From: Iphione sp. A-MEVVRFRX5
Lineage: Eukaryota
Length of the DNA: 64,000 nucleotides
Direction of reading: 5' to 3'
NCBI GenBank assembly: GCA_976226885.1
Contig: OZ320322.1
Location: forward strand, 16,120,001 to 16,184,000
Every line of letters starts with the position of its first letter. The first letter of the stretch is position 1. The position numbers were made by a program, and so were the translations under genes. Below the pieces are notes generated by a model, which was not told the DNA's origin, searched no databases, and worked only from the letters and a program-made list of their open reading frames with translations. Below are positions 26,025 through 36,556 of this stretch, in pieces.

Positions 26025-26500
26025 TGTAGTTTCTACTTGGGTTCAATAAAGAACTGACAACTCTGAGTCCTGATTCCAAACTGTCTTTATTCAGGTTCCC
26101 TCTCATATTTATATCTTTTCTCCAATCAAGGCACTAGCCAATCATCCGTCAGTATCAGAGTAACAGAATACATTGTTACCTCCTTTAACAGTCCTTTCAA
26201 CTAACCCACCAATCAGGAGAGGGCAAAGTATCACCTTTGGGCTGTGGGACCACAGCCGAGTGCTGCCGATCCAATCACAAGAGAGCTTTGAGACTCCAGG
26301 GTAGTTTGTTTTAAATCCAGGGGTGGCTGTGGTACCACAGCGACCTTTAGTGCATATGCACCGAGTCCAGTACTCCTGCACTTACTTCTTATAGCCAGTG
26401 CACCCCGACTGTGGCACCACACACTTCTGCGCACAGGGCGTGCGCCCGTACCTCCACCTGTGGCACCACAGCTCGAGGCCGGCTCCTGCATACCACTACA
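26025..26500 (-). repeat. 3' LTR (476 bp)
   Basis: Direct repeat of 36099-36556; by eye, 9 substitutions plus an 18-bp indel (tcaggttccctctcatat). Confidence 0.97.
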
Positions 26501-26513
26501 CTATCCCCTCTTT
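26501..26513 (-). promoter_or_regulatory. Polypurine tract (AAAGAGGGGATAG)
   Basis: Purine run immediately 5' of the 3' LTR on the minus strand. Confidence 0.85.
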
Positions 26514-26750
26514 AAATTACTCCCACCTCTGAGGGATGGGACGAAGTATTACACCCTAGAAGATCAATGTAGGAACAGCAACTCTAACTCAATCTCCCAA
26601 CACTATAGCCACTAGGTAGCTTCCTGAATTTTAGCACCAATGAAATTTCTCTCGCCGTCACTACTTAACACCTGCTAAAGTCTTACAATGCGTCTACTCC
26701 CGAAAGTATCTGAGTGTCCCTGAGCATGCAGTCTTATAAGCCTGGACTAC

Positions 26751-26935
26751 GGCTTACGGCCGTGGTAGTTCAGTAAAACAGTCATATCAAATGAACTAAG
26801 GCTTACGGCCGTGATAGTTCAGTGCAACAGTCATATCAGATGTGGAGGTATGTAGTCCTCTGAATGTGAAGTAAGGCTTACGGCCGTGGCAGTTCAGTAA
26901 AACAGTCATATCAAGTATGGGGGCTTAAGGCCGCA
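26751..26935. repeat. Four imperfect direct repeats (ggcttacggccgtg.tagttcagt..aacagtcatatca) in the Gypsy 3' UTR
   Basis: Unit starts at 26751, 26800, 26875 and 26922 (last one partial). Confidence 0.85.
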
Positions 26936-27189
26936 ATAGTCCAACCAACCAATCACATAAAAAACACTATCATACTTTTAATTCAACAACGGAGAAGCCC
27001 GTGTTGGGTGAAACTTGACCTCTACGTGAACTCTGAATCTGGCCTCACTCTCTTGGAGGAAAGTTTGATCACCGTGATGATATCAGTCTCACGTGGAGTT
27101 TGAGGCCCGAGCAACGACACCAACTCAACACAAAAAACATTCTTTACCCGCTCGGGCCCCTACTCACCACCCTGTGGAGGTCGGCTGTT

Positions 27190-28820
27190 CTACTCCTCCG
27201 TCCACATCACGTCAGTGTTGGTGCGACGCTGCTGAGGGGGGCGGGCCTCCAGGAGGTCCCACACAGTGGGGTCCTCCGTTCGTTGTTGGGCCCGCGCTGC
27301 TTGTGCCTCCCGCTCCCAGGTGTCGAAGGCCTCGCGCCTCGAGGCCGCCGTCGTCGCATAGGCCGGACGCGGGTCTTCGAGGAGGTTGGTCGCGGCTTCG
27401 ATCGATCGTTGTGCCAGCGGGTGACACGTTCGCGGTCGCCCCACTCGAGCCGGTCAGGGATCCGCATCCCTTCCAGCGCGAGGACCGGCCGCCTGACCAG
27501 GGGGTCGATGAGGTGCTGCGGCGATGCCTCCGACTCAGCCAGGGCCAGAACCCACGCCAAGGAGGAACTGGCGATGAAGCGAGAGGTTGGGCTCATCTCC
27601 ATCCAGCGGGGAGGGGGCCATTCCAGCCGCTGGGGAAGGCGTACCATAGTAGGAACCATGACGGCTCGCCGTATCGCCGGGTAGGGCGGCACTCGGCCGT
27701 CCAGAATTTCCCGGACTCGGCGGGACAGCAGGCCGAGCATGGGCGTGGTGAGTTCCTGTTCTGCCAGTCGTTGAAGGTGTCCTGGTGGGAGGGCTGCCTC
27801 CCGGGGCCGATCGCTTGACGGACCTCGAGAGGGTCCGGAGGCCTCCCAAGCCGTCAGGGTGTCAAGGAGGGCGGCCGGACTCCAGTCGGGGGTCGGAAGA
27901 GATGGCCCCCCTCGCAGTAAACTGGCGACTGACGTGGGCGTCCCTGGAGTGGCGCTGCTGCTTCGTCGTCCACCGCTGCCGGCTCTGGTTGACCCCCACG
28001 GGCCTCCGGTGACGGGAGATACACCCCGGCCCCAGGCATAGGGCGCTTGTGGTGCATCCCGGAGATACCCCCGCCCGGCAGGAGCTGGAGGCATGGGCGG
28101 AGTGCGGTCGCTCCCTACGCTGCCCTCCCCAGAGTCAGAGGGGGAAGCGGGACGTCCAACGGCGGCAGCGGCCGGTGAGGTGCGCCAGCGGGCTCGGCCA
28201 GAAGCATGGGGCGGCTGGGACTCCGGCGGGGGTGTGGACTCCATTGCCGATGAAGAAGATGGTCTGAGAGGCCCGGGTGGGGGCCTGGCTGCCGGTGTCC
28301 GAGGTGCACCGTGCCCAGGCAGAATAGAAGACGGTTGCCGCCCCCAGACGACGCGCCGCTCGGGGAGGCTCGGCCAACGCTCTAGGATCTCATCTACTTC
28401 CGCCGGACCCATGAAGGCGCCCAGAGTGGCGGAGAGCTGCCGGGCTCGGATGATGACGTCGGCCCGGTTGTCATCGGGCACGAAAAGTTCCCCCGCGTCA
28501 CCCTGTTGATGGTCGAAAAGGCTGCGGTAGGCGGGGGCCGTCAGTCCCCTCTCCATGACCCACGGATGGCGCCGCCGCAAATGGGCGAGCCAGGTGCCAG
28601 GCTCACCTAGGACGCTGGGACAGAAGAGGCAGTCCATCTGTCGGTGTCGGCGGCCCCCATGCTGCTCCTTCTGATGACCCTCCAAGGACTCCCCCGCCCA
28701 ATACACCCGGTGGGGTGTGCAGAGCTCACACCAAGCTGTACCAGGGGGCAGGGGTTCTCCCTCCTCCACCTGGGGTGCCGGGGGACGTGCCACTTTCTGC
28801 CGGGGCATGCCGCTTGCCAT
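27190..28820 (-). CDS. Gypsy accessory ORF, ~540 aa: two N-terminal C2H2-like zinc fingers, Pro/Ser-rich middle, duplicated M(V)R[LI]PxRLEW motif
   Basis: ORF 28820-27207 contains CELC-x14-H-x4-H and CLFC-x12-H-x4-H. A probable single-base frameshift near 27440 would instead end the protein in the 27444-27190 frame (..LAQRSIEAATNLLEDP..WTEE*). Function unknown. Confidence 0.7.
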
Positions 28821-28845
28821 AGAGAGAGAGGGCCAGACAGGGTGG

Positions 28846-34600: not shown

Positions 34601-35150
34601 TCCCCTGTTGGATCAACAGTTCCCTCTCCCCAGTGTTCCACACGGGCAGCACCTGGCTTACAACGCAACGCACTTCTACCACCCCTTGCAATAACCGACC
34701 CTCCTCTAAGCCCTCTACCAAGAATGGGCCCTCTCCACTGGGAGACACTGGGATCCCCACCCCTTCCCCAGGGGGAACCGTAATATCGGAGGCTGCCCTC
34801 AGTACCTTAACTCCCCTGGTCTGTTCCTTCCCCCTAGGGGTCCCTCCAAACAAAACCTCACCCTGTGACAAGTCAATGACAGTGCCATGCTGGGTCAAGA
34901 AATCTGCCCTCAATATCCCATCCCCTTCTATCTCTGCTAACAGGAAGTGGTGTTTGAATTCCTTTCCAGCAATCCCTACCTGCACCTCCTCTCTCCCTAC
35001 CGTTGGCAGGATATGGCCCCCTACCCCCATAACCTTTACAGCAGCCCTCTTAACAACTGGGCCAGGGACCACACAGGATATTCATAATGGAAACTTCAGC
35101 ACCCGTATCAATAAGCAGTAGGAGTGTCCTCCCACCACAGCTTACCTTGA
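31700..35150 (-). pseudogene. pol: Gypsy pol (protease, reverse transcriptase, RNase H, integrase), disrupted
   Basis: IDTGAEVS at ~35110; RFCVDYRKLN, DLASGYWQ, MPFGLVNAPATF, YLDD (~33870); TDASNVGLGAVL, ELLAVV, DALS; integrase H..H..C..C, WSMDVAGP, LHSDRGTN, GDAVWL-like GNAVWL and PWTGPW. Multiple stops and frameshifts. A low-complexity tail may continue to ~30970. Confidence 0.95.
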
Positions 35151-35216
35151 GATGTGGTCCCTGGCCGTATTCCATTATCACCTCCCGGTGGACAGATGCA
35201 GTCAGTGTCCCCTGGC

Positions 35217-36067
35217 CTACTGAGCCGACTGCTGTGTGTTTTCAGACGGTTTAGGCCCTGTAGTGTTCGATGCTTGCTGTGGGGCTTTCGGGCAATCTCT
35301 CTTCCAGTGACCCGGTTGCTTGCAGAGGAAACACAAATTGTCCCTGGGCCAAGACCTCTGAGGTTGCATTTCCTCCTGTAGTTTGGCAAACTCCTGCATT
35401 AGGACTTCCACCATGTCCTTGGGTGCTGTGCTGTTAGAATCCTTGTTGCCACTTGCTTGAACGCCGGGAACCGTTCTTGGATCTCCACTACCTGTAGTGC
35501 AGCCTCCATGGTCTTGCATTGGGCTTCTAAACATTTCAAATGCAGGTCATCAGGGAGTGCCAGTTGGAAGGCCGACACTGCTGCTAACTCTCGCGTTTCT
35601 GCACTCACATCGGGGTACGTGGTGCGTACAAGTCATCGGACTTTGTCAGCAAACCCCTTGGCATCCTCCCCTTTCTATCTGCGGATCGTGGACAGGTCTT
35701 GCATAGCCGTCACTCGATTACGTCGACGTCCAAACCGCTTTTCCAAGGCGGCTACCCTGGACTCAAAGTCAGCCTTGTCCTCTGATGGGAGGTCTCCAAA
35801 GTACATTCGGGCGGTGCCAGTCAACGACAGAGCCAGTGCTGAAGCTCTTGTGTTCGGACTCCACTTGCATGCATCTGCCCATTCGACAAACTGGACAATC
35901 CAGCTGTCCCAGTCGACTACGCTGCCATCGAATCATTCAGGTTTCATGGCATTGGTGCGCAGTGGCTCCTCTGGGGCTAGCACGTAAGGTTCAGCTTCTT
36001 CTTCATCGTCCGCATCCGGTACGCGTAGCTGTACCTCGTCGTCAACTGCCACAAACTTGGTAGCCAT
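35217..36067 (-). pseudogene. gag: Gypsy gag, disrupted
   Basis: ATG at 36067, 13 nt after the PBS; KPE*FDGSVVDWDSWIVQF..ALSLTGTARMYF..ALEKRFG; zinc knuckle CFLCKQPGHWKRDC at 35333-35292; three stops and one frameshift. Confidence 0.9.
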
Positions 36068-36079
36068 GATGTACAGTGG

Positions 36080-36097
36080 ATCCCACTTCTGACACCA
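36080..36097 (-). promoter_or_regulatory. Primer binding site TGGTGTCAGAAGTGGGAT (tRNA-Leu)
   Basis: Starts 1 nt from the 5' LTR; complementary to the 3' end of metazoan tRNA-Leu(CAG) (..ATCCCACTTCTGACA-CCA), from memory. Confidence 0.9.
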
Positions 36098-36098
36098 G

Positions 36099-36556
36099 TG
36101 TAGTTTCTACTTGGGTTCAATAAAGAACTGACAACTCTGAGTCCTGATTCCAAACTGTCTTTATTTATATCTTTTCCCCAATCAAGGCACTAGCCAATCA
36201 TCCGTCAGTATCAGAGTAAGAGAATACATTGTTACCTCCTTTAACAGTCCTTTCAACTAACCCACCAATCAGGAGAGGGCAAAGTATCACCTTTGGGCTG
36301 TGGGACCACAGCCGAGTGCTGCCGATCCAATCACAAGAGAGCTTTGAGACTCCAGGGTAGTTTGTTTTAAATCCAGGGGTGGCTGTGGTACCACAGCGAC
36401 CCTTAGTGCATGTGCACCGAGTCCAGTACTCCTGCACTTACTTCGTATAGCCAGTGCATCCCGACTGTGGCACCACACACTTCTGCGCACAGGGCGTGCA
36501 TCCGTACCTCCACCTGTGGCACCACAGCTCAAGGCCGGCTCCTGCATACCACTACA
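36099..36556 (-). repeat. 5' LTR (458 bp)
   Basis: TG..CA ends, adjacent PBS, followed by TSD ATAC. Confidence 0.97.

Follow-up and report, generated by a model that had tools for sequence, protein, structure and literature searches.

Divergent accessory genes and family-specific palindromic boxes shared by the LTRs and an internal spacer of an animal Ty3/Gypsy lineage

LTR retrotransposons are considered to rely for their expression on the transcription factors of the host, and self-made transactivators mark the complex retroviruses. HTLV-1 carries in its 3' region a sense regulator, Tax, which is not known to read DNA alone, together with a spliced antisense gene, HBZ. Foamy viruses, in the sections of their published description cited here, have their accessory genes for Tas/Bel1 and Bet downstream of the enzyme genes and ahead of the 3' LTR, possess an internal promoter, carry response elements both in that promoter and in U3, and encode a dimeric, DNA-binding regulator with element-specific sites (PMC3798896). 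In several plant Ty3/Gypsy elements (maize Grande gene23, RIRE2, Retand) and in fungal Boty, conserved antisense ORFs (aORFs) lie between pol and the 3' LTR and have their own internal promoter, according to the part of the survey used here (PMC7264820). Here we describe a Ty3/Gypsy lineage of Iphione sp. A-MEVVRFRX5 in which accessory genes occupy the same place, a sense gene accompanies an antisense gene with predicted introns and a predicted internal promoter of its own, the response elements recur as motifs only, and the regulator has a presumed counterpart.

The window, a stretch of 64,000 nucleotides (contig OZ320322.1, positions 16,120,001 to 16,184,000), holds a Ty3/Gypsy copy on its minus strand at 26025-36556 (Table 1). 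Its identity follows from several features: firstly, TG...CA LTR ends, a target-site duplication, a primer-binding site and a polypurine tract are all present, as in an LTR retrotransposon; secondly, the gag CCHC knuckle, the order RT-RNase H-integrase and a Gypsy-type RT place it in Ty3/Gypsy, with Pfam recovering zf-CCHC, RVT_1, RT_RNaseH_2, Integrase_H2C2 and rve in gag and pol; thirdly, the nearest RT-RH relatives, 57-65% identical, are labelled Ty3/297/K02A2.6-like (outside this genome the nearest RT relatives are P0017, P0018 and P0022, at 64-65%). Over 458 aligned nucleotides the two LTRs show 9 mismatches, and the 5' LTR also lacks 18 nt in the interval from its TATA to its polyA signal. 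The copy is dead: every gene is broken, gag and pol lie in several pieces, and a deletion near 32300 has removed ~37 residues from the integrase core.

Table 1. Features of the Ty3/Gypsy copy, in positions of the window.
Feature	Position	Strand	Details
Target-site duplication	26021..26024 (left), 36557-36560 (right)		ATAC
3' LTR	26025..26500	-	Boxes at 26243, 26328, 26410, 26459; four CCAAT elements; TATA 26108-26113; polyA signal 26086-26091
Polypurine tract	26501..26515	-	Assigned from sequence; same position in relatives
Sense zinc-finger (ZF) gene	27190..28820	-	542 aa in unbroken copy
Spacer	28821..29760		Between the divergent genes; four CCAAT elements adjoining the antisense TATA
Spacer boxes (ten)	28847, 28889, 28960, 29132, 29271, 29364, 29487, 29548, 29630, 29690
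Antisense core promoter	29761..29797	+	TATAAA at 29761; initiator-like TCATCT; predicted start ~29794
Antisense gene	29794..30944	+	Predicted exons ~29794-29868, 29990-30064, 30191 to polyA signal
Antisense reading frame and 3' end		+	ATG 30003; stop 30870-30872; polyA signal AATAAA 30939-30944
46-bp tandem repeat	31304..31636		Between antisense polyA site and pol end
pol	31700..35120	-	Protease region, RT, RNase H, integrase; several pieces
gag	35217..36067	-	CCHC knuckle; stops interrupt frame
Primer-binding site	36080..36097	-	Presumably tRNA-Leu type; common to most related families
5' LTR	36099..36556	-	Boxes at 36299, 36384, 36466, 36515

The original prediction of an accessory region after integrase, with divergent genes around a spacer, holds in the window and throughout the lineage. 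The accessory frames match no env family, in keeping with that prediction, which saw no signal peptide, furin site or TM anchor there; an F-type env upstream of one relative (L076) was rejected as part of the lineage, since it belongs to a different repeat, present in many copies, that abuts a 5'-truncated element. The sense gene has the extent first proposed for it, and a frameshift near 27410 breaks the window copy (open frame 28820-27207). Its protein begins with a predicted C2H2 finger pair and helical extension (~150 aa), followed by a low-complexity linker and a conserved C-terminal domain of ~190 aa without an assigned fold; all eight zinc ligands of the fingers are invariant (22/22). 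The antisense unit has its TATA box, predicted introns and polyA signal where they had been placed, and in the window copy a premature stop (30393-30395). Across elements, TATA and initiator are present in 22 of 23, the polyA signal in all 23 and an open spliced frame in 19 of 20, and most other families have a TCAGT initiator at unchanged spacing from the TATA. The antisense protein comprises a beta-rich domain, a Ser/Pro-rich middle and a C-terminal SIMa-like motif. The SIMa pattern, [PILVM]-[ILVM]-x-[ILVM]-[DSE]x3 (PMC7145520), is matched strictly by 11 of 18 antisense proteins, the window copy's tail included, and its hydrophobic core by 18 of 18; the C-terminus thus agrees with the SIMa sequence pattern, and SUMO interaction is putative.

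This layout is common to 13 other copies of the window family and to about a dozen divergent ZF groups in the same genome. All 20 loci picked by ZF match contained an antisense ORF or its remains, and among 20 further loci 19 gave a ZF match and 18 an antisense match. Both accessory genes are under purifying selection, with dN/dS mostly 0.04-0.37: 0.04-0.27 for the ZF N-domain (6 of 11 pairs; five were saturated), 0.08-0.24 for the ZF C-domain (9 of 11 pairs) and 0-0.37 for the antisense beta domain (9 of 11 pairs), against 1.07-2.57 for the other frames, the mirror frame excepted. Retention in family members and dN/dS well below 1 had both been named beforehand as checks, and both bear out the original prediction. 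Alignment searches, confined to near lengths, of a 5.8-billion set poor in animal transposon proteins returned no homologue of either protein outside this genome; nor did 1.84 billion representatives or viral and metagenome contigs, collections similarly poor in such proteins.

The window's box, TGTGGNNCCACA, is a 14-bp palindrome of two 5-bp half-sites around a 4-bp core. The ten spacer boxes and four per LTR reported at the outset were recovered (five exact and five one-mismatch in the spacer, four exact in each LTR). Elsewhere in the window (~53 kb) there are only two one-mismatch matches, and the total of 20 compares with a shuffle mean of 3.0 and maximum of 8 (100 shuffles). Boxes also co-occur with the two ORFs in related elements, as had been expected, and even covary between LTR and spacer. 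Their 5+4+5 geometry is constant across families, with G at half-site positions 3 and 5, and the outer two bases are family-specific (CT, TC, CC, TT and TG; also AT and GGG types). In 23 of 26 elements the commonest outer two bases of the spacer boxes are also those of the LTR boxes, and in three they differ, counts that are inflated because the 26 elements amount to only about eight independent backbones; L076/L088, with boxes in the LTR and a spacer at chance level, were left out of them. Compared with its own LTR a spacer gives a mean cosine of 0.90, and with foreign LTRs 0.34. In seven of eight elements tested the spacer holds 8-15 boxes against shuffle means of 0.5-1.4, LTR boxes likewise exceed shuffles, and those in the ZF coding sequence do not. 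In none of 21 elements do spacer and LTR align over more than 29 nt, which rules out the spacer as an LTR duplicate; many separate sites have therefore changed in step. What is new here is that family-specific outer bases are concordant between spacer and LTR without longer homology.

The same lack of block homology, together with purifying selection on both genes and the conserved antisense promoter and splice signals, argues against an accessory region of captured or decaying DNA whose boxes are by-products of repeat turnover or of LTR-to-spacer copying. Such an origin, which we regard as highly improbable, would suit the ruined state of the window copy and the tandem repeats in which LTR boxes lie in several families.

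We favour, at a probability of roughly 0.58, the reading that dimers of the ZF protein bind the palindromes and activate, within their own family, the LTR as well as the inner antisense promoter, an arrangement that would resemble foamy Tas in its action and VANC in its family specificity. One trans-acting factor would read LTR and spacer boxes alike, that factor would be the element's own ZF protein, and its specificity would drift with the boxes, giving each family a private on-switch. Pfam finds zf-C2H2_4 in 2 of 14 ZF proteins (best E 4.6e-5) and zf-C2H2_12 in 4 of 14. The finger region is predicted at pLDDT 70-90, and its best matches are C2H2 DNA-binding arrays at non-significant scores (best PDB E 0.16, Foldseek E 1.6); the whole model has a pTM of 0.27 and a VIA-wide best Z of 4.3. 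The second-finger helix loosely tracks box type (Q-S/T with TC, CC and TG; Y with TT; H or G with CT, AT and GGG). Against this reading, several finger positions lack the usual base-contacting residues, and the ZF proteins found with CT boxes are of two strongly dissimilar kinds (DEHY and EPGT helices).

The boxes might instead be read by host transcription factors, a Runx-like one at the TGTGG type and others at other types, with the ZF protein serving another end such as RNA handling or integration targeting. CT boxes contain TGTGGT, which we take to be the Runx core. The exact CT box occurs 2481 times in the genome, mostly in clusters, compared with 66 for a reversed control, an excess that counts for the favoured reading. 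Outside the clusters 7 of 10 in a hand-picked sample stood alone within 1.2 kb; some sites may therefore serve something else. ZF cassettes only 65-73% alike in DNA have moreover been swapped among backbones whose boxes are unchanged. Runx as sole reader is rejected, since most box types, TC, TT, TG and GGG among them, lack its core, and the five or six outer dinucleotides matched between LTR and spacer would call either for several host paralogues or for a single factor of great tolerance, the latter of which would not force concerted change. We consider a host reader unlikely.

The cassette swaps are accounted for equally easily by an antisense or a host reader. Where ZF genes have been swapped, the antisense gene, its tree and the box type follow the backbone, and the beta domain is strongly selected, consistent with the antisense protein reading the boxes, either by itself or by lending specificity to a complex in which the ZF protein is its partner. 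However, this protein matches no DNA-binding family and has no confident fold (model pLDDT 42; Atlas blank for the beta domain), its beta domain spans no more than ~60 aa and is not basic, and TC and GGG families with close antisense proteins have different boxes. A pol-less family has furthermore lost the antisense protein while keeping boxes and ZF gene, a situation in which supply in trans is possible. Recognition by the antisense protein thus appears distinctly unlikely.

The pol-less family, a chimera of which we read three copies, consists of LTRs and gag with no pol and a broken antisense gene without the SIM-like tail; it retains the boxes and an open ZF frame, and its LTRs are 99-100% identical. 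The ZF frame is stop-free in 16 of 19 close copies, and a hand count over the finger domain of two copies gave 12 synonymous against 3 non-synonymous changes. That a parasite keeps a selected ZF gene is easier to understand if the ZF protein aids expression in cis, and within U3, ahead of the TATA, the LTR boxes have multiplied in tandem, as is usual for enhancer sites. Both points count against a ZF protein that binds the boxes and represses LTR and antisense transcription, as a family-specific self-limiting or immunity-like brake on expression driven by host factors (at CCAAT and ETS-type sites). Such repression, in our view rather unlikely, would fit the spacer-LTR covariation equally well, the boxes that in many families come within a few bases upstream of the ZF start codon, and the ZF C-terminal domain, which has no obvious acidic activation stretch.

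If the ZF protein is an activator, boxes packed so close to its start codon could provide feedback on its synthesis. The self-regulating circuit on the Tas pattern that had been proposed stands as to the motifs shared by LTR and spacer; the clear candidate internal promoter points to the antisense gene, and none was found for the ZF gene, with no conserved TATA, initiator or splice acceptor upstream of it in 21 elements. Candidate routes to a ZF mRNA are a TATA-less, ETS-type start in mid-spacer (an ETS-like motif lies there in 16 of the 21, and is absent from the window copy's own family) or splicing from the LTR. The antisense protein may be a nuclear helper or brake, acting via SUMO and its C-terminal motif, and we propose that the antisense orientation of its gene is maintained because, in sense, the introns would be lost from genomic RNA by splicing.

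A broader scenario, which we put forward tentatively and as somewhat less than an even bet, is that an animal Ty3/Gypsy lineage independently evolved a complex-retrovirus module: a swappable ZF cassette and operator code would yield private-switch families comparable to phage immunity groups, a spliced antisense protein would counter SUMO-dependent host silencing, and pol-less parasites would hijack the switch by recombining a compatible LTR and ZF cassette. If true, a sequence-specific regulator of its own in a Gypsy lineage would mean that such a design has an origin beyond Retroviridae. With at least five box types and about twelve finger domains, the genome provides a natural series suited to tests of protein-site co-evolution, and small regulators that are orthogonal to one another could serve as tools. 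A single box type has about 2,500 exact copies in the genome, so that the ZF protein could also reach host genes via solo LTRs.

Unlike foamy viruses, these are Ty3/Gypsy elements without env whose evident internal promoter is predicted to fire antisense, and the regulator candidate is a C2H2 pair for which no similarity to Tas was found; neither accessory protein has a Pfam or database match pointing to Tas, Bet or spumaviruses, and the RT is Gypsy-type. Foamy response elements are described, in the part of the source drawn on here, as little conserved in sequence (PMC3798896), whereas the sites here are short identical palindromes. The analogy with HBZ survives in the antisense orientation and fails in the start site: the HBZ promoter lies in the 3' LTR, as the survey's cited section has it (PMC7264820), whereas the antisense gene here starts internally, in a spacer from which two genes diverge. 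The plant and fungal aORFs, as presented in the same survey (PMC7264820), differ from the antisense gene here in its introns, SIM-like tail, divergent sense ZF partner, shared operator-like boxes and animal host, and no homology was found; by position and conservation it fits aORF-3R, a descriptive class and not a statement of homology. Among invertebrate LTR elements, Oikopleura Tor3b/4b have an internal promoter after pol, which drives env in sense (PMC4402516), and bdelloid elements show that non-env third ORFs occur, their ORF3s being env, DEDDy, GDSL, coiled-coil or TM proteins (PMC5408684); the cited portions of these two accounts make no mention of ZF regulators or shared LTR sites. Searches of the open literature listed no Gypsy element of an animal in which a ZF regulator and shared boxes occur together. 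A further parallel lies in VANC of the Arabidopsis VANDAL transposons, an element-encoded protein with conserved and variable parts, like the ZF protein here, whose short, dense, family-specific non-coding motifs often form tandem repeats and shift between related families, as do the boxes (PMC5735166, in the passages relied on here). VANDALs, by the same passages, are plant DNA transposons whose VANC motifs, 8-9 bp long and non-palindromic, are arrayed and affect DNA methylation (PMC5735166), whereas the present elements are Gypsy retrotransposons with 14-bp palindromes.

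The retrotransposon in the window (see table) has a gag gene whose product carries a CCHC knuckle, and its pol encodes RT, RNase H and integrase. The closest outside RT-RH proteins are 57–65% identical to its own and bear Ty3/Gypsy-type names. Its LTRs differ by 9 mismatches and one 18-nt gap. This copy is dead, because gag and pol are fragmented into pieces, the integrase core is short by about 37 residues, the zinc-finger (ZF) gene carries a frameshift and its divergent partner, the antisense gene with its predicted introns, carries a stop. Both units were found where the original prediction had placed them, as were the ten palindromic boxes of the intervening spacer and four in each LTR: 18 of 20 window matches to TGTGGNNCCACA (≤1 mismatch) fall in the spacer and the two LTR clusters, with 3.0 expected in the window.

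Coordinates of the element, its lesions and associated repeats, with loci elsewhere in the genome
Feature	Position	Strand	Detail
LTR retrotransposon	26025-36556	minus	LTR pair, flanking ATAC target duplication, PBS, PPT, gag, pol
5' LTR	36099-36556	minus	
3' LTR	26025-26500	minus	
ZF-gene 3' UTR repeats	26726-26943		short repeats, 65-nt unit three times
ZF frameshift	near 27410		
Antisense stop	30393-30395		
Array past pol	31304-31636		46-nt tandem units; copy number differs among element copies
Array outside element	41778-43400		five to six 288-nt tandem units
Separate env repeat	L096:3120-7501 and L076:1-1850 (G000:C11 ~103.315-103.320 Mb)		
Locus L129	G000:C15:55.295-55.305 Mb		remnants of the antisense gene plus eleven CT boxes, without ZF match; likely to be a truncated copy from another CT family
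Locus L011	G000:C13:80.10 Mb		370-nt inverted pol piece in first antisense intron

Searching the genome at the DNA level yielded 24 matches, and the accessory region aligned in 13 other copies (12 of them also through gag-pol), which argues against a one-off capture; where the ZF frame is intact, it is 542 aa long. Protein searches revealed many more distant ZF families (31–52% identity, open frames of 470–730 codons), with divergently oriented antisense frames at a distance of 2–3 kb. At 20/20 loci chosen by ZF match, the antisense ORF or what is left of it was in place, and a further 20 loci gave ZF matches in 19 and antisense matches in 18. Trees, with two short rows left out of each of the antisense and integrase trees, resolve some twelve ZF groups, carried on roughly eight backbones. 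The module is real and conserved. It is probably undescribed so far in animal Gypsy elements; our literature search, with subscription journals and Repbase outside its coverage, found no paper on one. At two loci, ZF-lineage elements sit beside a repeat that is separate from them. This repeat has a proline-rich ORF of 518 aa and an env gene of the baculovirus F type (~900 aa), with signal peptide, basic cleavage site and TM; it is very young and abundant, since 75/75 scored matches are 99–100% identical.

Both accessory genes are under purifying selection. By the Nei-Gojobori method (11 pairs for each gene part), dN/dS was 0.04–0.27 in six pairs for the ZF N-domain (five were saturated), 0.08–0.24 in nine for the C-domain and 0–0.37 in nine for the antisense beta domain. 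The ZF linker spanned 0.18–1.57, and the remainder of the antisense gene gave 0.16–0.36 in 10 pairs and 2.33 in one close pair. Control frames (shifted, opposite) gave 1.07–2.57, with the exception of the mirror frame (0.28–0.34), which has third positions in common. No zinc ligand varies: all eight are the same in 22/22 ZF sequences. The finger region has a predicted fold (pLDDT 70–90) with weak family and structure matches; the C-terminal domain had no match in a predicted-structure search, and the protein-sequence, viral and metagenome collections searched, which hold few animal transposon proteins, contained no homologue of the ZF or antisense protein. Some SIM-like stretches (IDLT; IIELS plus acidic) occur in the variable ZF linker of loci L078, L079, L077 and L083.

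Judged from its sequence, the antisense gene forms a full Pol II unit: firstly, a TATA box, then TCAGT or a close variant ~30 nt on, and a Kozak ATG are found in 22/23 elements; secondly, an intron in phase 2 that contains a long poly-T tract links a short initial coding exon to the main one, and the frame after predicted splicing is open (212–308 aa) in 19/20; thirdly, AATAAA or ATTAAA lies ≤150 nt from the stop in 23/23. Within the window's family, 14/14 copies retain the acceptors, ATG, second donor, stop and polyA signal, and 13/14 the TATA. Most families among loci L073–L092 and L113–L132 keep a second strong donor (GTAAGT/GTGAGT) 90–170 nt beyond the in-frame donor, ahead of the poly-T tract; this donor could indicate an alternative exon or isoform. 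We infer that an element copied through RNA can keep an intron-bearing gene only if that gene lies antisense, which would account for the orientation. The candidate internal promoter points to the antisense gene. Upstream of the ZF gene, 21 elements showed no TATA, initiator or acceptor that is conserved. In 16/21, the middle of the spacer holds a paired motif that we take to be ETS-like; the window's family lacks it. In 18/18 cases the C-terminus of the antisense protein consists of P-[IV]-x-[IVL] together with acidic or serine residues; 11 of these match the SIMa pattern strictly (PMC7145520).

The box, compared across families, is a palindrome of 14 bp with two 5-bp half-sites around a 4-bp core; half-site positions 3 and 5 are G, position 4 is loose, and positions 1–2 are family-specific (CT, TC, CC, TT, TG or AT). 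The modal type of the spacer equals that of the LTR in 23/26 elements, and box-profile cosine was 0.90 with the own LTR versus 0.34 with foreign LTRs. L076 and L088, whose LTR start was not located, were excluded from this comparison, and their spacers hold boxes at chance level. Box counts exceeded dinucleotide shuffles in the spacer (7/8 tested) and in the LTR, and did not in ZF coding sequence. As spacer and LTR have at most 29 nt of continuous sequence in common (21/21 elements), dozens of separate sites have changed in step, which points to one common reader whose preference would differ by family. Genome-wide there are 2481 exact CT boxes versus 66 for a reversed control, mostly clustered among the places listed; 7/10 hand-picked unclustered sites are single boxes.

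We estimate a probability of about 0.73 that the ZF protein binds the boxes. It is the sole candidate with a putative DNA-binding architecture, and box type is loosely tracked by residues of the second-finger helix. L117, L118 and L122, the three copies read of a recently mobile family, are young non-autonomous chimeras (LTR pairs 99–100% identical) that combine a TC-group LTR and gag with a CC-related ZF cassette; pol is absent and the antisense gene wrecked, while boxes and an open ZF frame are retained. That frame is stop-free in 16/19 close copies, and a hand count over 146 codons gave 12 synonymous versus 3 non-synonymous differences. Against a ZF reader, cassettes merely 65–73% alike have been swapped among backbones 97–99% identical upstream with box type unchanged, CT boxes pair with two dissimilar ZF proteins, and independent cases are few. 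As to the regulatory mechanism that we infer for the module, activation by the ZF protein would be considerably more probable than repression.

By homology, the module is a member of none of the foamy Tas, VANC, aORF-3R or Tor systems. Among invertebrates, Tor elements set a precedent for an internal promoter, there serving env (PMC4402516). By its position, the antisense gene falls among the plant aORF-3R genes, of which Grande gene23 is an example (PMC7264820). The evolution of the boxes can be likened to that of the VANC motifs, which is likewise family-specific (PMC5735166), and the foamy Tas circuit would be the nearest analogue in working (PMC3798896).
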